The notes beneath the pieces were generated by a model, which saw only the letters and a program-made list of their open reading frames with translations, ran no database searches and was not told the DNA's origin. The position numbers and the translations under genes were made by a program. A stretch of 34,338 nt of DNA, taken from NCBI GenBank assembly GCA_045588285.1, contig JAZNDV010000110.1, forward strand, positions 1 to 34,338, written 5' to 3'. Below are positions 1,501 to 18,348 of the stretch, piece after piece. Numbering within the stretch: position 1 is the stretch's first letter; every line of letters starts with the position of its first letter. This DNA comes from Eubacteriales bacterium. GTDB lineage: Bacteria > Bacillota > Clostridia > Oscillospirales > UBA644.

Positions 1501-1718
1501 AGAGTCGAAAAGTTCTTAGGAAAAAGAAGTATTCAAGGGGAACGACCGATGAAAACGACAGAATTCTGTGAATAAACGGATAAAAAATTCAACTGCGTAG
1601 GACAGATTTTTTCATCAATTATCAAAAATACATACTTTTTCGTTATGATGCCTTTCTTTTCGTGCGAAAACATTTTTATCCCTATTTTGTCATTTTTAGC
1701 AAGTTTTCCCCTTTTCTA

Positions 1719-1747
1719 TTGACTTTTCCCGTAGTGTGTGCTACAAT
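1719..1747 (+). promoter_or_regulatory. Second sigma-A-type promoter upstream of the glycan locus (TTGACT-N17-TACAAT with TGn extension)
   Basis: TTGACT is at 1719-1724 and TGc-TACAAT at 1739-1747, with a 17-nt spacer. It lies about 110 nt upstream of ATG 1859. Confidence 0.55.
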
Positions 1748-1858
1748 ATACTTAATAATACAAAGATAGAGGAAAAAGATTCCTTCAGCATACGTCACTT
1801 TTTGCGTTGCAAAAAATCCCGTTCCGTGACGTAGCGGGAGGACTTAGGATTTATAGAA

Positions 1859-2992
1859 ATGAGTAAAAAAGTTGCGTATTTGATCAGCTGCTTTGATCAT
1901 TACGGGTGCCGTCTTCAGGTAATGGATGAGTGCCTCCGGTCTTCGGGGTATGATACCACTTATATTACCTCGGATTTCGATCACACTTTTAAGCAATCTT
2001 TTGTTTGTAAGGTTCCGGGGTGTATGCAGATTCATGCTCGCCCCTATCTCAAAAATCTTTCGGTGGATAGAATTCTCTCTCATCGCGCTTTTGCAAGAGA
2101 TGCTTTTCGGTTTTTTGAAAGTCTTCCGGAAGAGCCGGAACTGATCGTCGTACATATTCCTCCCAATTTCTTAGCGCATTATGCTGCGAAATACAAGAAG
2201 AAGCACCCGAACGTAAAACTGATTTTCGATATTTTCGATTTGTGGCCCGAAACCTTTCCTTTTGGGAAATTAAAGAAATTGCTCACTCCGGTCTTCCGCG
2301 TTTGGGCATGGATTCGGGATCACAGCCTGCATGCGGCGGACTTTATTACGACGGAATGTGATCTATTTCGTGAAAAACTGAAATTATCAAAAGAGAAGTC
2401 CGCAACGGTATACCTGTGTGCAAAACCGCTTGATATTCCCCCCGCTCCCGTGGTTCTTCGGGAAGATGCGCTGGATCTTTGCTATTTAGGCGCAATCAAT
2501 AACGTTATCGGAATTTCGGATATTTCTCTACTGATTGAACGGTTGGTAAAAGAAAAACCCGTGACGTTGCATATCATCGGCAAGGGGGAACGTGAGCAGG
2601 AATTTATCGATTCCGCAAAAGCCGCCGGGGCAGAGGTCGTTTTCTACGGTCCTATCTACGACGATGTGAAAAAGCAGGAGATCATAAACCGCTGCCATTT
2701 TGGTCTGAATATTATGAAATCCTCCGTCTGCGTCGGTTTGACCATGAAATCTGTCGACTATTTCCGCTTCGGCTTGCCCATTATCAACAATATTCCTGCA
2801 GATACCCAAAGATTGGTGGAAAAAAACGGCATCGGTGTTCCGCTCGATTCGAAGTGTGCGGAAAAGATTTTGAATTTGAATACTACAGATGTTTTACAAA
2901 TGCGAGTGCATGTTTATGATATGTTTGCCCAGAATTTTTCCGAGCAAATAATTGATGAACAATACAAGAAAATGATGAATAGACTTGAGTGA
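1859..2992 (+). CDS. GT-B fold glycosyltransferase (GT4-like, WbuB/WcaI-like)
   Basis: The 377-aa protein starts with an N-terminal Rossmann beta-strand (KVAYLISCFDHYG). It has an IFDLWPE motif typical of WbuB/WcaI-type GT4 enzymes. It is the first gene of a co-directional glycan cluster. Confidence 0.7.
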   Translation: MSKKVAYLISCFDHYGCRLQVMDECLRSSGYDTTYITSDFDHTFKQSFVCKVPGCMQIHARPYLKNLSVDRILSHRAFARDAFRFFESLPEEPELIVVHIPPNFLAHYAAKYKKKHPNVKLIFDIFDLWPETFPFGKLKKLLTPVFRVWAWIRDHSLHAADFITTECDLFREKLKLSKEKSATVYLCAKPLDIPPAPVVLREDALDLCYLGAINNVIGISDISLLIERLVKEKPVTLHIIGKGEREQEFIDSAKAAGAEVVFYGPIYDDVKKQEIINRCHFGLNIMKSSVCVGLTMKSVDYFRFGLPIINNIPADTQRLVEKNGIGVPLDSKCAEKILNLNTTDVLQMRVHVYDMFAQNFSEQIIDEQYKKMMNRLE

Positions 2993-2999
2993 GGATACT

Positions 3000-3938
3000 A
3001 TGTCGAATCCTATAGTACGTATTTTGTTAGCCACATATAACGGCAAGAGTTATATTCGTGAAATGGTGGATTCAGTTTTAGACCAAGATTATCCAAATAT
3101 CCATATTGTACTGTCTGATGACGGGTCCAATGATGGTACGGATTTGATTCTTGAGGAATATGCTACTGCAAATCCTGAAAAAATCACGCATTATAAATCC
3201 GGATTGCGCTTTGGTTGTGCACAGAAGCATTTCATGCATCTTCTTTCGAAGTTTCAGAACGCACCGTATATTATGTTTTGTGATCAAGATGATGTGTGGC
3301 ATCCGGACAAGGTTCGTAAAACTTTAGAAAAAATGAAGTCGGTTGAGCCTGATTCTTCGGTTCCGTCTATGGTGCATACAGACCTTCGGGTTGTGGATGG
3401 GAACCTTACAGAAATTTCTCCGTCCTTCTGTAAACATTCTAAGTTGGATGGAACTCGGCTTGCATTGAATCAGTTACTTGTGCAAAACGTAGTCACCGGC
3501 TGTACGATGATGATTAACAATTCTCTTGCAAAGATTGCTTGCGGGAATTATTCGGAAGATGGAATGATGATGCACGATTGGTGGTTGGCTTTGCTGGCAT
3601 CTGCTTGCGGAAAAACAGGGTTTCTTGATGAGGCAACCATCGATTATCGACAACACGGAAACAATTCCGTCGGTGCCAAAAATGTGTATTCTATAAAATA
3701 CTTGGTGAACAGGTTGCAATCTAAAAAAATGCGTGGATCTTTGAGAGATGCCGCCGGTCAGGCAGAATTATTTCTTTCTTGCTATGAAAATCTTTTAGGT
3801 ACGAATCAGAAAGAATTGTTATTTGCTTTTGGAAAAACCGCAAGAATGGGAATCCTGAAAAAGAATTATGTCTATTTTAAGTTCGGGTTGTTGAAATACG
3901 GAGTCGTTCGAAAAATCGGTCAAGTTTTAGGAATATGA
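3000..3938 (+). CDS. GT2 (GT-A fold) glycosyltransferase, rhamnosyltransferase-like
   Basis: Motifs are ILLATYNG..YI..(DSVL)DQDY, SDDGSNDGT and CDQDDVWHPDK. ATG 3000 follows GAGGA; the 2985 start would overlap the preceding gene. Confidence 0.8.
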   Translation: MSNPIVRILLATYNGKSYIREMVDSVLDQDYPNIHIVLSDDGSNDGTDLILEEYATANPEKITHYKSGLRFGCAQKHFMHLLSKFQNAPYIMFCDQDDVWHPDKVRKTLEKMKSVEPDSSVPSMVHTDLRVVDGNLTEISPSFCKHSKLDGTRLALNQLLVQNVVTGCTMMINNSLAKIACGNYSEDGMMMHDWWLALLASACGKTGFLDEATIDYRQHGNNSVGAKNVYSIKYLVNRLQSKKMRGSLRDAAGQAELFLSCYENLLGTNQKELLFAFGKTARMGILKKNYVYFKFGLLKYGVVRKIGQVLGI

Positions 3939-3956
3939 TTTGTTGATTTACGAGGT

Positions 3957-5510
3957 ATGATGATGAAAAATAATGTTAGAGCTTCAGGCAACACAAGAAA
4001 ACAGTTTTTCGGAACGTTGATTACTGCCTTTGCAGGATTCTTTTTGATGTCGGTTAGCCTAGTCTTGAATCCCGTTAACCATTACGTCAATGGATTGTTC
4101 TTGGTTTTATGTTCTGTTATACTGTATTTCTTCTGTGTGCTTACTCTTTCAGATAAAAACTGGATGGATATCCGAGCCGTTTTTTCTTTAATTTGGTTTT
4201 CTACGATTGGACTGGCCTCCTTTCGCTTAACAGATTATCAGGAGCCTTGGCAGCGAGGTACATGGTTCTTGGTGGCGGTGACCTACGCAATGTTTCAAGT
4301 GGGTGCGGCGCTTGGTATTTACGGTGGTTATAAAATGATTCCCCCTTTGATGAAAAAAGCAAAAAATCTGCGTTTGGGGAGAATCGGATTTAAGTTGCAG
4401 GAAAACCGATTGTTCTGGATATGTATTGTTACAACTGTGGTTGGTTTGGTTTGTTTTATTATCAACGTTTTTATCCGAGGATACATTCCATGCTTTTCGG
4501 ACAGTCCCACCGCGTATGTTGATTTTTACACCCGGTTGCATGTGTTTTCTGTTGCGTCTACCGGTGTTTGTGGGCTTTGCTATTATTGTATTCGGACTCA
4601 AAAAATCAGCGTTGTAAAAAGAGTGGTTTTGTGGAGCTGTATTTTCTACGAATTGATATTGTTTCCCATTTTAGTTGTTTCCAGAGGAACTTTCGTTGTT
4701 GCCGCGGTTTCCTTTACGGTTGTTGTGTTTTATTTGCATAAAAAGAAATTTATTTCATTGGTTCTTTGCCTCTTGGTTATTTTGGGTGTTTATATGATTT
4801 CATCAAAAATCAGAGGATACACGGACGCTCAGCTGCAAGTCTTTTTTGAACCGTCTAAAATCACCGTTGACCCTTCCGGAGTCCCTAACTCTAGTAAGGG
4901 AACTGATACGAACGCAGACCGTACAGATAGTTTGTCCACGGATTCTGAGATTAGTTCAAGCAGTACAGATTCCGATATCAGTATGAATGGTACTGATTCA
5001 GGCGTTGATTCAAATGATTCGGATGTGATTTCCTTTTCACTGTCTCCTAAAATGGCGTTTTTGTACGGATATTTGACTGTAAGTCACGATAATTTTAACG
5101 AGGCGGTCCAGAATACGAAAAATTTTAGTTTAGGAATCCGACAATTGCAACCTTTTAACGTAATTCTGCGGAGTCAATGGGTATCAATGAAGGCAGAAGG
5201 TCTGGAACACCATTTGGTTCGTCCACACCTGAACACCACCAACTTGATTGGGGATTTCTACTATGACTTCGGCGCGTTGGGAGTAATCTTTTGCACCTTG
5301 ATTTGGGCGTTTGTGTTTGGTTTTATACAATCGTTTTATGAAAAAAGCGGAGATGCGTTCTCTTTGCTGGTTTTGGGGAATTCAATGATTCCTATTGCAC
5401 TGTGTTTCTTCGCCTCCTGGCTTAGTGTATTCAGTCAATGGTTGCTTTGGGGTGTTGTCCTAATCTTTTGGGTAGCGGCATGCCTTAAGATTAAATCCAG
5501 AAAACGATAA
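3957..5510 (+). CDS. wzy: Wzy-like oligosaccharide repeat-unit polymerase, polytopic membrane protein
   Basis: The 517-aa protein has more than 10 hydrophobic segments, no soluble catalytic motifs and one large hydrophilic loop. It sits between glycosyltransferases and rml genes in a locus that also encodes Wzx. Three consecutive ATGs occur at 3957/3960/3963, and 3963 is best spaced from GAGG. Confidence 0.6.
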
Positions 5511-5541
5511 AAAATTGATAAACGAAGGAGGAATTTCATAT

Positions 5542-6438
5542 ATGAAAGGAATCATTCTTGCCGGAGGGTCCGGCACGCGGTTATACCCTTTGACGAAGGT
5601 TACGTCGAAGCAGTTGCTTCCGATCTACGATAAGCCGATGATCTACTATCCCATGTCGGTGTTGATGAATGCGGGGATTCGGGATATTCTGATTATCTCT
5701 ACCCCTCAGGACACGCCCCGCTTCCGGGATTTGCTTGGAGATGGAAAACAATTTGGGGTGAATTTGTCTTACGCGGTTCAGCCTTCTCCCGACGGTTTGG
5801 CACAGGCGTTTATTATCGGTGCCGATTTCATTGGTTCCGATCCCGTCGCGATGGTGTTGGGTGATAATATTTTTGCAGGTCACGGCTTGAAAAAGCGGCT
5901 CCGTGCTGCCGTAGATAATGCAGTTTCCGGGAAAGGTGCCACCGTATTCGGATATTACGTGGACGATCCCGAACGGTTTGGTATCGTTGAGTTTGATGCT
6001 GACGGACGAGCGATTTCCATCGAAGAAAAGCCGGAAAAGCCCAAGAGCAATTACTGCGTTACCGGTCTCTACTTTTACGACAACCGGGTCGTGGAATATG
6101 CGAAGGATCTGAAGCCTTCTCCCCGGGGAGAGTTGGAAATTACCGATTTGAACCGCATCTATCTGGAGCAGGGTGACTTGAACGTAGAGTTGTTGGGACA
6201 AGGATTTACCTGGCTGGATACCGGGACCCACGAAAGTCTTGTGGAGGCGACGAATTTCGTTAAGACCGTGGAAACCCATCAGCACCGCAAGATCGCTTGT
6301 TTGGAAGAGATTGCTTATCTGAACGGCTGGATCTCCAAGGAAGAGGTTTTGGAAGTCTACGAAGTTTTGAAGAAAAACCAATACGGACAGTACTTGAAAG
6401 ACGTTCTGGACGGAAAATATATTGACGTGCTTCACTGA
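5542..6438 (+). CDS. rfbA: Glucose-1-phosphate thymidylyltransferase
   Basis: The N-terminus [34 protein letters not shown] is the RmlA signature. GAAGGAGG lies 8 nt upstream of ATG 5542. Confidence 0.95.
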
Positions 6439-6457
6439 TTTATTGGAGGAAAACAAC

Positions 6458-7477
6458 ATGACCATCATCGTTACCGGCGGTGCCGGATTTATCGGTTCCA
6501 ATTTCGTATTCCATATGTTGGGAAAATATCCGGAGTATCGTATTATCTGTTTGGACAAACTGACCTATGCGGGAAACCTTTCTACCTTGGCTCCTGTGAT
6601 GGACAACCCCAATTTCCGGTTTGTAAAAATGGATATCTGCGACAGGGAAGGGGTCTATAAGCTTTTTGAAGAGGAACACCCCGACATCGTCGTCAATTTT
6701 GCGGCAGAAAGCCACGTGGACCGTTCCATCGAAAATCCCGAAGTCTTCCTGCAGACCAACATTCTCGGCACACAGGTTCTGATGGACGCTTGCCGGAAAT
6801 ACGGAATCACCCGTTATCATCAGGTCTCTACCGACGAAGTGTACGGCGATCTTCCCCTCGACCGTCCCGACCTGTTCTTCACTGAGGAAACCCCCATTCA
6901 TACCTCTTCTCCCTATTCCTCGTCCAAGGCAGGGGCAGATTTGTTGGTTCTTGCTTATCACCGTACCTTTGGTCTTCCCGTAACCATTTCCCGTTGCTCC
7001 AACAACTACGGTCCCTATCACTTTCCCGAAAAATTGATTCCTTTGATGATTGCAAACGCTCTCAACGATAAACCCCTGCCCGTTTACGGCGAAGGGTTGA
7101 ACGTCCGGGACTGGCTGTACGTGGAAGACCATTGTAAAGCCATTGATCTGATTATCCACAAGGGTCGTGTCGGTGAAGTTTACAACATCGGCGGACACAA
7201 CGAAATGAAGAATATTGATATCGTCAAGATCATCTGTAAAGCATTGGACAAGCCTGAAAGCTTGATCACCTACGTTACCGACCGCAAGGGACACGATATG
7301 CGTTACGCCATTGACCCCACCAAGATTCATAACGAATTGGGCTGGCTGCCCGAGACCAAGTTCGTCGATGGAATTCAGAAGACGATTCAATGGTATTTGG
7401 ATAATCGGGAATGGTGGGAAACCATCATCTCCGGCGAATATCAGAATTATTACGAAAAAATGTATGGCAAGCGCTGA
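6458..7477 (+). CDS. rfbB: dTDP-glucose 4,6-dehydratase
   Basis: The protein has TGGAGFIGSNF, an YSSSKAGADLL catalytic motif and typical RmlB length. GGAGGA lies upstream of ATG 6458. Confidence 0.95.
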   Translation: MTIIVTGGAGFIGSNFVFHMLGKYPEYRIICLDKLTYAGNLSTLAPVMDNPNFRFVKMDICDREGVYKLFEEEHPDIVVNFAAESHVDRSIENPEVFLQTNILGTQVLMDACRKYGITRYHQVSTDEVYGDLPLDRPDLFFTEETPIHTSSPYSSSKAGADLLVLAYHRTFGLPVTISRCSNNYGPYHFPEKLIPLMIANALNDKPLPVYGEGLNVRDWLYVEDHCKAIDLIIHKGRVGEVYNIGGHNEMKNIDIVKIICKALDKPESLITYVTDRKGHDMRYAIDPTKIHNELGWLPETKFVDGIQKTIQWYLDNREWWETIISGEYQNYYEKMYGKR

Positions 7478-15003: not shown

Positions 15004-15144
15004 ACAAGCAATTAAAGGTTTCCAGTTTCCCGGCAGGAGGTTCGGGGACTGCGGTGAGACTGATAAGCCAACACCGGATTCAAAACGCGCCCCTATCGTC
15101 TATCTTCAAAATAATGCAAAAGAAATGAAAAGGAGAAATCCGAA

Positions 15145-17517
15145 ATGGGAACGAATACGAATCGAAATGTTGCGGCTGATCCGCAAAAACCTCCGGGTAT
15201 CAACCCGGAACGGGGGTTCAATACCTCTTTCCGGGGACTTCCGCTTCTGACGAATAAGCAACTGTCGTCTGACGAATTGCTCCTGTTGGAACAGGCGGTT
15301 CCGAACGATGAAAAAGTACAGTTTGTAATCGTTGGCGATCTGAATTTGAAAAACAAATACGCCACTTCCTTTTTGGCGGTCACCGATCGACAGATCTACG
15401 GGTTTGATCCTTCTTTGGAGAAGGGATATAAAACCCACGGATACCAAGGAATCTGCCGTGCTTACGTGAAGCGGTATTACGGCAACGCGACGTTGGTGTT
15501 TTCTTCCGATGACAGCGGCAGAGAATATATCGATCTATCCAAGCAATATGAAAATTTTATCCGATTTTCTTACAAAGTTGCTTCCCTTTACGATTCGGCT
15601 GCCCGTTATATCGAGAACGTTGCCGCCGGTAAAGATCCGGGGGAGGAACTGAAGTTTGTGGAAGCCGCCTTTGAAAAGCAATTCAGCATTTGTCCCAAGT
15701 GTGGACGTGCGCTGATCCGCCCCGGTGCCCCTTGTCTGAATTGTCAATCCAAAGGGCAGGTGGTTAAAAAATTGGCGGGGTATATTTTGCCTCAAAAATG
15801 GCTGCTTCTGTTTTGTCTGTTGTTGTCCGTGATCACCACTGCCGTGTCCCTCGTTCCTCCTTATATGACGAAAACGCTTGTGGACGACGTACTTCCCCAC
15901 GGAAAGAAGAATATGCTTCTGGTGTGCGTCGGAGTTCTGTTTGGAACGTATTTGATTCAGTATGGAATCGGTGCGGTTCGTTCCTATCTTCTCCGGGTCA
16001 GCGGGGACAAAATTGTGGCGGAGTTGCGCAACGACGTCTACCGTAAAGCACAGCTTTTGCCCATGCGCTTTTATGACCGCACCTCTACCGGTTCGGTCAT
16101 CAACCGGATCAGCGGCGATACGTCCACGATACAGGCGTTTATGCTCCGTATTACGCAAGAGGTCGTGGTTCAGTTTTTCCTTTTGATCGGAATTATCGTC
16201 ATTATGTTCGTGCTGAATTGGGAACTGACCTTGTTGTCCTTGATTCCCGTTCCTTTCGTGGTCGTGGGGGCTCGCATCTTCGGTAAAAAGATTGCGCCTT
16301 TTTATCGCCGCATTTGGCGGCGTTGGTCGGCAGTCTCGTCAATTCTGACCGATACGATTCCCGGAATCCGGGTGATTAAGGCATTTACCAACGAAAAAAA
16401 GAGCGTAGACACCTTCTGCGATTATAACGGAGAATGGCTGAAAACCGATATTTCCGCGTCGAAGATCACGACGTTATTTCCCAACGTCGTCAGTTTCGTT
16501 ATTTCCTGCGGTTCGCTTTTGATTTGGAGCGTCGGCGGAAATTGGACCATCGACGATCCGGGGATTTTGTCTCCGGGGTTGTTGGTCTCCTTTATTTCCT
16601 ATACGTCTATGTTCTACGGTCCGGTCAATTTCTTTGCAAACCTCAACGATTCCTATCAGAACGCCCTGAATTCCGCAGAACGGTTGTTGGATATTTTGGA
16701 CGCGGAACCGGAAGCCGATTTCGCGAAGGGGAATCACCCCAAGCATTTGAAGGGAAAAATCGAATTTAAGAACGTCAGTTTTTCCTTCGACCGTTCCAAG
16801 CGTACCCTCTCCAACGTGAATCTTACCATTGAACCGGGGGATATTGTGGGCATCGTCGGGACGACCGGTGCGGGGAAATCCACGTTGATCAATCTTCTTA
16901 TGCGGTATTACGACCACTACGACGGTGAGATCTTGATGGACGGAATCAACATCAAAGAGATCGACTTGGAATTCTACCGTTCCGAAATCGGCTACGTTCA
17001 GCAGGAGCCCATGATCTTTCACGACTCCATCTACAACAATATCGCATACGGTTGTGATAACGTTCACGTGGAACAGGTGATCCACGCCGCAGACGTTGCC
17101 AACGCCCATGAATTCATTGCCCGGCTTCCGGATGGATACGATACTCTTTTGGGAGAACGGGGAACCGGATTGTCCGGCGGCGAACGGCAACGGTTGTCCA
17201 TTGCCCGGGCAGTGTTGCGAAATCCCAATATTCTGTTTTTGGACGAAGCCACCGCTTCCGTTGACTCGGAAACCGAAAGCCTCATTCAAGATGCGATCGA
17301 CAATCTGATTCGGGGGAGAACCACCCTGATGATCGCCCACCGTTTATCTACTCTGCGGAAGGCAAACAAAATTATCGTCGTGGATAAAGGGGAGATCCTG
17401 GAAATGGGTTCTCCGGAAGAATTGATGGAAAAGAAAGGCAAATACTATAAGTTGGTTCAGATTCAGACCATGTCCGACCAAATTCGTAAAACCAAGGAAG
17501 AAGAGAGGTTTGAGTAA
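15145..17517 (+). CDS. Type-I ABC exporter half-transporter (TMD-NBD) with a ~215-aa N-terminal cytoplasmic extension containing a zinc ribbon
   Basis: AAGGAG lies 9 nt upstream of ATG 15145. Six TM helices of the ABC_membrane type start near residue 217. The NBD has Walker A GTTGAGKST, signature LSGGERQRLSIARA, Walker B ILFLDEATASVD and H-loop IAHRLST. The N-terminal CPKCGRALIRPGAPCLNC is encoded at 15691-15744. Confidence 0.9.
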   Translation: MGTNTNRNVAADPQKPPGINPERGFNTSFRGLPLLTNKQLSSDELLLLEQAVPNDEKVQFVIVGDLNLKNKYATSFLAVTDRQIYGFDPSLEKGYKTHGYQGICRAYVKRYYGNATLVFSSDDSGREYIDLSKQYENFIRFSYKVASLYDSAARYIENVAAGKDPGEELKFVEAAFEKQFSICPKCGRALIRPGAPCLNCQSKGQVVKKLAGYILPQKWLLLFCLLLSVITTAVSLVPPYMTKTLVDDVLPHGKKNMLLVCVGVLFGTYLIQYGIGAVRSYLLRVSGDKIVAELRNDVYRKAQLLPMRFYDRTSTGSVINRISGDTSTIQAFMLRITQEVVVQFFLLIGIIVIMFVLNWELTLLSLIPVPFVVVGARIFGKKIAPFYRRIWRRWSAVSSILTDTIPGIRVIKAFTNEKKSVDTFCDYNGEWLKTDISASKITTLFPNVVSFVISCGSLLIWSVGGNWTIDDPGILSPGLLVSFISYTSMFYGPVNFFANLNDSYQNALNSAERLLDILDAEPEADFAKGNHPKHLKGKIEFKNVSFSFDRSKRTLSNVNLTIEPGDIVGIVGTTGAGKSTLINLLMRYYDHYDGEILMDGINIKEIDLEFYRSEIGYVQQEPMIFHDSIYNNIAYGCDNVHVEQVIHAADVANAHEFIARLPDGYDTLLGERGTGLSGGERQRLSIARAVLRNPNILFLDEATASVDSETESLIQDAIDNLIRGRTTLMIAHRLSTLRKANKIIVVDKGEILEMGSPEELMEKKGKYYKLVQIQTMSDQIRKTKEEERFE

Positions 17518-18005
17518 TGGAACGGATTTATATCGACCGCGATTTTGCCCGGTTCACCCGAAAGGATATTACGGTTGTGGATATGGAATTGTATGACGGG
17601 CGGAAATTTGAAAATCTGGAACCCCGCCGGCTGTTCCCTATGACGGGTCTTGAAAAGTACATAACCCTTTTAGACCAGGAAGGACATGAGGTTGCGGTGA
17701 TCCGAGATCTGCGCACCTTGCCGGAAGGAGAACGAAAGATCATCGAGAGTTGTTTGGAGGAATATTATTTGATTCCCCGCATCACCCGGATCAATGAGTG
17801 CAAGGAATCTTTCGGAATGCTTACTCTCAACGTGGAGACCGACCGGGGGAACGCTGTCATCGAAATCAGAAACATTTTTCACGGGTTAAAGCTTCTGTAC
17901 GGAAGCAGAGTTTTGGTTTGTGACATCAACGATAACCGCTATGAGATTCCGGACTTAAACAAGCTCGACCGAAAAAGCAGAGCTTTACTTGATTTATTCT
18001 TATAA
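17517..18005 (+). CDS. DUF1854-like protein (162 aa)
   Basis: The TAATG stop/start overlap with the exporter gene indicates coupling. I recognise the sequence style (LEPRRLFP, YITLLD..G.E...IRDL..LP, YLIP.I.RI, VETDRG, RYEIPDL..LD..SR.LLDLF) as DUF1854 (PF08909) from memory. This needs HMM confirmation. Confidence 0.7.
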   Translation: MERIYIDRDFARFTRKDITVVDMELYDGRKFENLEPRRLFPMTGLEKYITLLDQEGHEVAVIRDLRTLPEGERKIIESCLEEYYLIPRITRINECKESFGMLTLNVETDRGNAVIEIRNIFHGLKLLYGSRVLVCDINDNRYEIPDLNKLDRKSRALLDLFL

Positions 18006-18021
18006 TACGGAGGAATAAAAT

Positions 18022-18348
18022 ATGAAATTGATTCTTGCCATCGTGAATAACGATGATAGTGCCGTTGCATCTTCCGCATTGACCGATGCCGGATTTTTTG
18101 TCACCCGTCTTTCTACGACCGGCGGCTTTCTGATGGTTGGGAATACGACCCTCCTCATCGGAACGGAAGACGACGACACTGCAGCAGCCCTTGATATTCT
18201 GAAAGAGCATTGTACGACCCGGAAGCATATCAATGCCCATACGGCGTCCTTTGGCGCCGGAATGAAAAACCATAGTTTACCCGAAGAGGTGACCGTCGGC
18301 GGCGCTACGGTGTTCGTTCTGAACGTGGATCAGATGGAAAAGTTCTAA
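18022..18348 (+). CDS. darA: PII-like cyclic-di-AMP receptor (DarA/PstA, YaaQ family)
   Basis: The 108-aa protein reads MKLILAIVNNDDS...FFVTRLSTTGGFLMVGNTTLLIGTEDD...VGGATVFVLNVDQMEKF. It is collinear with B. subtilis YaaQ/DarA as I remember it (TKLATTGGFL..GNTT..IG, GGATVFVL). GGAGGA lies 8 nt upstream and only 16 nt separate it from the DUF1854 stop. Confidence 0.85.
   Translation: MKLILAIVNNDDSAVASSALTDAGFFVTRLSTTGGFLMVGNTTLLIGTEDDDTAAALDILKEHCTTRKHINAHTASFGAGMKNHSLPEEVTVGGATVFVLNVDQMEKF

Follow-up and report, generated by a model that had tools for sequence, protein, structure and literature searches.

Why should an exporter of the Sav1866/MsbA type, whose relatives begin almost at the membrane, carry some 215 residues ahead of its first transmembrane helix (TM1), and what might these residues be for? 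The question is raised by one gene in a 34,338-nucleotide stretch of DNA from a member of the Eubacteriales (assembly GCA_045588285.1, contig JAZNDV010000110.1, positions 1 to 34,338; hereafter the window), where the open reading frame (ORF) at 15145–17517 on the forward strand encodes a 790-residue ATP-binding cassette (ABC) half-transporter. Residues 1–215 of its product are a genuine, translated, soluble cytoplasmic head on the exporter. From structural modelling and profile comparison, this head is best described as a pleckstrin homology (PH)-like domain followed by a four-cysteine ribbon that is joined directly to the helix preceding TM1. From its genomic distribution, the head is the hallmark of ABC exporters encoded beside a soluble protein of the DUF1854 family, and these exporters probably work jointly with that protein.

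The exporter core begins where the head ends. Pfam matches assign residues 221–494 to ABC_membrane (PF00664, 167 bits) and residues 555–704 to ABC_tran (PF00005, 116 bits), and the motifs of the nucleotide-binding domain (NBD) are intact (Walker A at residue 572, signature at 676, Walker B at 697 and H-loop at 730). A six-helix transmembrane domain (TMD) of the ABC_membrane family together with an NBD containing all motifs identifies the protein as a type IV (Sav1866/MsbA/ABCB-like) exporter. No Pfam family reached its gathering score within residues 1–220, and residues 1–200 contain no hydrophobic segment in a 19-residue Kyte–Doolittle scan (maximum 0.77). Hydropathy places TM1 at approximately residues 218–240, in agreement with the first-pass annotation of this DNA, which had put it near residue 217. 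Alignments to the solved exporters Sav1866, TM287/288 and BmrA run from residues 204–216 to the end of the protein, with residue 2 of Sav1866 opposite residue 207 and residue 22 of TM287/288 chain B opposite residue 204, and for no solved ABC exporter does the alignment reach ahead of residue 204. The ORF, the cysteine codons, the hydropathy profile and these alignments show that the coordinates and description of the extension in that annotation were correct.

An extension of this length could be an annotation artefact, the real translation start lying close to TM1. Most half-transporters, as a general rule, do begin there, and codons 1–24 show no protein-level constraint. However, the ATG at 15145 is the earliest start codon past the upstream stop and has a ribosome-binding site before it, and no further in-frame ATG occurs between codons 1 and 241. 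Compared with five related loci, codons 25–214 have a ratio of nonsynonymous to synonymous substitution rates (dN/dS) of 0.08–0.13 (0.02–0.03 for the TMD and NBD), the four cysteines are invariant, and the fold of the region is predicted with confidence by AlphaFold2 (AF2); the head is translated and is under purifying selection. A word-indexed search with residues 1–215 returned 129 proteins, nearly all of 780–820 amino acids with both ABC domains, and these cover 88–100% of the query at 46–87% identity; the extension is kept in more than 100 full-length homologues. When the head by itself was the query of an exhaustive search, 108 cluster representatives came back, most of them pieces of such proteins at contig ends; a plasmid collection searched with a distant head gave no match. 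The ribosome-binding site, the dN/dS values, the homologues and the alignment to solved exporters all agree that the extension is truly present, and a start-codon artefact, which we rejected on the ribosome-binding site, dN/dS, the invariant cysteines, the predicted fold and the conservation across homologues, is effectively refuted and scarcely credible.

What, then, does the head look like? An AF2 model built on an alignment of 46 sequences from related loci (mean predicted local distance difference test score, pLDDT, 80.8; predicted template modelling score, pTM, 0.72) divides it into a short tail, a compact domain, a linker helix and a knuckle region. The tail, residues 1–24, had been described as a disordered start rich in Pro, Gly and Asn, and its pLDDT of <50 bears this out; among homologues it is variable or missing. 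The domain that follows had been read from its sequence as a beta-rich segment resembling a bacterial PH or GRAM fold. The model likewise has a PH topology: two short strands and a helix (residues 42–51) are followed by seven strands between residues 58 and 141 and by a capping helix at residues 143–160. Conserved motifs within it are GDL (residues 64–66), Y72, KRxYGN (109–114) and R140. When the head was compared with the PDB by Foldseek, the matches were almost exclusively PH, phosphotyrosine-binding (PTB) and GLUE domains; the best was the PH-like domain of DENND3 (E 4e-4), and others were the bacterial PH structures 3dcx and 3hsa, the GLUE domain of Vps36, the PTB-type domains of kindlin and talin (F3), and BBS5. 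The Pfam family bPH_3 (PF14470) was matched by 12 of 33 relatives at E <=1, the best at 5.1e-6. Taken together, the model and these matches argue for a PH-like fold, that is, a seven-stranded sandwich with a C-terminal capping helix. The helix linking this domain to the ribbon carries an FEKQF motif that is kept in close relatives.

The ribbon had been reported as C183, C186, C197 and C200, and these residues are encoded by four TGT codons (15691–15693, 15700–15702, 15733–15735 and 15742–15744) with the spacing CxxC-X10-CxxC. In an alignment of 33 heads that are 25–68% identical, these four positions are the only invariant columns, and the Cys4 motif is present in every DUF1854-linked ABC protein looked at. 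Up to 28 of the 33 relatives match zinc-ribbon families of Pfam, the window sequence itself scoring under the gathering thresholds, and a profile search of PDB sequences retrieved small zinc ribbons only, with anti-TRAP the best (E 0.002). In the AF2 model the knuckle region (residues 181–200) runs into a helix at residues 198–211. The ribbon ends 4–7 residues ahead of the first positions that align to solved exporters, and six residues before the position equivalent to Sav1866 residue 2. The features of the locus are collected in Table 1.

Table 1. Features of the exporter gene and its operon partners, with window positions and the evidence for each (pN and pS, proportions of nonsynonymous and synonymous differences)
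Feature	Positions	Strand	Evidence
Ribosome-binding site AAGGAG	15130..15135	+	Sequence reading; GGAG (15132–15135) is 9 nt 5' of the ATG at 15145
Residues 1–24, disordered variable Asn/Pro/Gly-rich tail	15145..15216	+	pLDDT <50; pN ~ pS
Residues 25–160, predicted PH-like domain	15217..15624	+	AF2 (pLDDT mostly >90); Foldseek; bPH_3 in relatives
Residues 161–180, with helix 165–179 linking PH-like domain to ribbon	15625..15684	+	AF2 secondary structure
Residues 181–201, predicted Cys4 zinc ribbon CPKCGRALIRPGAPCLNC	15685..15747	+	Invariant columns; Pfam zinc-ribbon matches in relatives
Residues 202–217, basic pre-TM1 (elbow-type) helix SKGQVVKKLAGYILPQ	15748..15795	+	AF2 helix 198–211; alignment to Sav1866 and TM287/288
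TM1 and rest of type IV ABC exporter core (six-helix TMD, NBD)	15796..17517	+	Pfam; hydropathy; motifs
DUF1854 gene, start overlapping the ABC stop (ATGA)	17517..18005	+	PF08909, 138.6 bits
darA (PII-like c-di-AMP receptor), third gene of the operon	18022..18348	+	PF06153, 109.5 bits

The region around the start codon has features of its own. Against the two closest loci, codons 1–24 show a pS of about 0.11, whereas dS is about 1 deeper in the gene, and their pN and pS are roughly the same; near the start codon, the stretch ATGGGAACGAA..GAATCGAAAT is invariant at the nucleotide level in seven loci. The low pS, its similarity to pN and this invariance suggest that the surroundings of the start codon are under constraint at the RNA level. 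Further upstream, between a promoter-like TTGAAA/TATACT and the ribosome-binding site, lies a 5' leader (15008–15102, forward strand). Its conservation is high in the seven closest loci, and its fold consists of two hairpins, supported by two compensatory pairs. The leader matched no family in Rfam, and hence no known riboswitch, occurs in a single copy in the genome and is not present in more distant DUF1854 operons. We regard it as a candidate clade-specific cis-regulatory RNA.

The role of the head can be approached through the company it keeps. We collected 51 related loci (L018–L068) from species-representative genomes, all of them metagenome-assembled genomes (MAGs) of gut or rumen Clostridia; 49 of these loci are free of contig-end truncation and could be assessed. 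In all 49, the head-bearing ABC gene has a DUF1854 gene directly downstream, and in many cases the stop codon of the first overlaps the start codon of the second. Among 301 genomes sampled evenly across the phylum, DUF1854 occurred in 15, and strong matches to the head were found in the same 15, beside DUF1854. The co-occurrence of the extension with DUF1854 neighbours, which had been put forward as something to look for, is therefore strict, and the link between head and DUF1854 is supported on genomic grounds. Two layouts occur, ABC-DUF1854, as in the window, and ABC-DUF1854-ABC; in 12 divergent loci of the second kind (L069–L080; for example, L069 at 1599–7145 and L070 at 1622–6666), each of the flanking ABC proteins has a head and the Cys4 motif.

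Some further observations concern these layouts and the distribution of DUF1854. Other families of the phylum often have the ABC-DUF1854-ABC layout, and there the upstream half usually has the spacing CxxC-X11-CxxC and the downstream half CxxC-X10-CxxC. PF08909 also scored above its cut-off in Sulfolobus acidocaldarius, a control genome, so that the DUF1854 family reaches the archaea. Genome G010 contains an isolated head fragment with a TAG interruption (C84:17158–17529) and, on another contig, an isolated partial DUF1854 gene (C119:12066–12206); the two may be what is left of a third copy that has decayed.

We hypothesize, with slightly more confidence than doubt, that the PH-like domain and ribbon form a head that, on a homodimeric Sav1866/MsbA-type exporter, docks the DUF1854 protein and/or cargo. 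The zinc ribbon would act as a structural rivet, holding the PH-like domain at the membrane–cytoplasm interface beside the elbow helix, and each exporter dimer would carry two copies of the head. The PH-like domain would be a docking platform for a protein or peptide, recruiting the DUF1854 subunit to the cytoplasmic entrance of the pump, and cargo would be brought to that entrance through DUF1854 or alongside it. Such a head might work in the manner of the N-terminal domains of HlyB and PCAT, or of the PH-domain helpers of ABC exporters for leaderless bacteriocins. A further precedent is the proposal, drawn from cofitness, that DUF1854 is a transporter subunit (bioRxiv 10.1101/072470). The DUF1854 protein itself is modelled by AF2 with confidence (pLDDT 89.8) as two beta-rich halves with a helix closing each, and the model has no significant neighbour in the PDB (best E 0.098). 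There is a weak internal-repeat signal (11% probability) between EVAVIRDLRTLPEGERKII and NRYEIPDLNKLDRKSRALL; a two-lobed DUF1854 protein serving a two-headed dimer would be an attractive, if unproven, picture. The median net charges of head and DUF1854 protein (+4 and -3) are only weakly complementary. No homology between the head and DUF1854 was detectable (hhalign probability 0.3%).

Several points weigh against this docking hypothesis. The head is a putative docking surface for DUF1854. In a mirror-tree comparison, distances among DUF1854 proteins correlate equally with those of the N-terminal domain, the TMD and the NBD (r 0.85–0.87), and since all parts give equal correlations, and all partial correlations in a partial Mantel analysis are positive, the comparison does not discriminate between them. 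The curators of Pfam record that DUF1854 is fused to an ABC protein in a few genomes, which does not tell where the contact site lies. With regard to the fold, Foldseek gives modest, although very consistent, scores (best E 4e-4, TM scores 0.3–0.5), and the head of the window protein matches bPH_3 at 14.5 bits (E 0.049), under the gathering score of 23. Finally, the binding of zinc by C183, C186, C197 and C200 is a prediction from their sequence pattern.

The PH-like fold also brings to mind lipids. On such an account, the domain would bind lipid head groups and so anchor or orient the exporter, or sense the state of the membrane, with no protein partner. The direct attachment of the head to the elbow helix, right at the surface of the membrane, would suit such a role, as would the lysines found in the beta1–beta2 loop of the close clade. 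Family-wide, however, this loop is not consistently basic, heads vary in net charge from -9 to +11, and lipid binding leaves the strict coupling to DUF1854 unexplained. We consider a purely lipid-binding role improbable.

A stronger competitor to DUF1854 docking is that the receptor for cargo is the PH-like head, which would bind an extended peptide or polymer in the way of a PTB domain and hand it to the translocation path, with DUF1854 placed elsewhere, for example on the NBDs. The N-terminal domains of HlyB and PCAT are known to bind cargo, and the peptide-binding PTB and talin F3 domains are among the Foldseek matches of the head. In addition, DUF1854 has been proposed to be a subunit of an exporter of amino-acid polymers, on the basis of cofitness with cphA-like genes for polymer synthetases and with an ABC transporter in two beta-proteobacteria (Price et al., bioRxiv 10.1101/072470); the head is not described in that report. 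On the other hand, the binding of cargo by the head is putative, and no cargo gene is evident in the window. The best match to the cyanophycin synthetase model TIGR02068 in the host MAG scored 114 bits against a cut-off of 850, with none in the window, although the MAG (1.56 Mb) is 84.5% complete and the absence of cphA from the genome is therefore not proven. Nor was there an Asn/Gln-rich small ORF that could encode a cargo peptide in the window or the related loci. We would give the cargo-receptor alternative a modest chance, clearly below even.

The closest curated families, named for cyanophycin metabolism, represent the beta-proteobacterial pair of Price et al. The best NCBIfam model for the window protein is NF052233 (cyanophycin metabolism-associated ABC transporter, an equivalog), which it matches at 582.6 bits against a cut-off of 880, and its DUF1854 partner matches NF052234 (cyanophycin metabolism-associated DUF1854 family protein) at 89.8 bits against a cut-off of 150. 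The alignment to NF052233 runs end to end with the head included, residues 44–783 corresponding to profile positions 19–752 of 766, so the head is not unique to the window gene: the full-length model already spans it. Among the many ABC genes of this MAG, only ORF 15145–17517 covers NF052233 positions 19–172, the remainder aligning from about position 163–181 onward. As compared through the profiles, the two pairs are alike in the full-length architecture with a head and in the DUF1854 gene immediately downstream, and fragments that score well over the head part of NF052233 also have the Cys4 motif. They differ in that both window proteins fall under the cut-offs, in that the genome has no cphA above cut-off and in that darA follows. 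Within the NF052233 family, the window protein represents a variant that scores under the cut-off, comes without cphA and is linked to darA.

This last gene raises the possibility of regulation. The first-pass annotation had suggested that the extension might be the docking site for DUF1854 and/or DarA, and the head could in principle be a regulatory input that binds DarA, either apo or loaded with cyclic di-AMP (c-di-AMP), so that c-di-AMP gates export. A darA gene comes right after DUF1854 in 35 of the 49 related loci, and in the distant locus L082 (3523–9210), where the head is about 32% identical, the order is ddl-murF-ABC-DUF1854-darA; the ABC-DUF1854-DarA triad is thus kept across deep divergence. 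(The two genes upstream at L082 scored above the Ddl and MurF cut-offs, and we therefore rejected the idea that they are a split cyanophycin synthetase.) The targets of DarA are largely unknown in the literature, which leaves room for such a role. Yet darA was not found in the fetched flanks of the other 14 of the 49 loci (the Faecousia/Oscillospiraceae group), nor near DUF1854 in any of the 12 divergent ABC-DUF1854-ABC loci, and the head and its Cys4 motif are equally kept in all of these. Since darA accompanies 35 of 49 close loci and none of the 12 divergent ones, the head is not DarA-specific, and since it is equally conserved without darA, a DarA-specific role is unlikely; DUF1854 or the NBDs could equally be the binding partner of DarA. 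Of the earlier suggestion, then, the link to DUF1854 stands on genomic evidence, whereas docking of DarA as a general role of the head does not, and we hold out only a slim chance that DarA binding is what the head is for.

It is tempting to speculate on a combination of these elements, in which two heads and a two-lobed DUF1854 protein would make up a cytoplasmic gate or loading platform whose opening and closing would, in this clade, be set by DarA according to the level of c-di-AMP. This is a long shot. Were it true, the operon would be the first case in which a PII-like c-di-AMP receptor exerts direct control over an ABC exporter, and the exported compound might be an osmolyte or an amino-acid-derived polymer.

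The head is also of wider interest. Exporters that bear it occur widely, both in Clostridia of the gut and rumen and outside them, and the strict coupling of head to DUF1854 provides a concrete handle on the role of an orphan family. Moreover, in the clade of the window the operon includes darA, and since little is known of what DarA acts on, the exporter, its head and the DUF1854 protein form a short list of candidate targets of DarA. The literature yielded no description of the head at the level of a domain, and no structure or biochemistry of it.

N-terminal accessory domains such as C39, C39-like and the siderophore-interaction domain of IrtA have revealed how cargo is selected and loaded in ABC exporters, and a PH-like domain that a zinc ribbon fastens to the elbow helix would be a different solution. 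HlyB (C39-like) and PCAT1 (C39 peptidase) carry soluble N-terminal domains that dock cargo, and these stand at the same position in the chain, in the cytoplasm ahead of the elbow helix and TM1 of a type IV exporter. The folds differ, however, being papain-like C39 there and, as modelled, PH-like with a zinc ribbon here; residues 1–215 matched no C39 family in Pfam or NCBIfam, no C39 structure was among the Foldseek matches, and the resemblance is one of analogy. The ribbon, for its part, shares with anti-TRAP, ribosomal protein bL32 and the Pfam families DZR and Zn_ribbon two CxxC knuckles about 10 residues apart, the matches being weak and consistent, but its place between a PH-like domain and the TM1 of an exporter is a new context. 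Bacterial PH domains (bPH_1/2/3; 3dcx, 3hsa) offer the same PH-like sandwich with a C-terminal helix, and relatives of the head match bPH_3 weakly. A parallel in function is offered by DdE and DdF, PH-domain proteins that are needed for the ABC-mediated export of the leaderless bacteriocin enterocin DD14 (PMC8657885). There, too, a PH-like module is functionally tied to an ABC exporter, but DdE and DdF are separate proteins, whereas the exporter described here carries its PH-like module in its own chain, with the ribbon after it.

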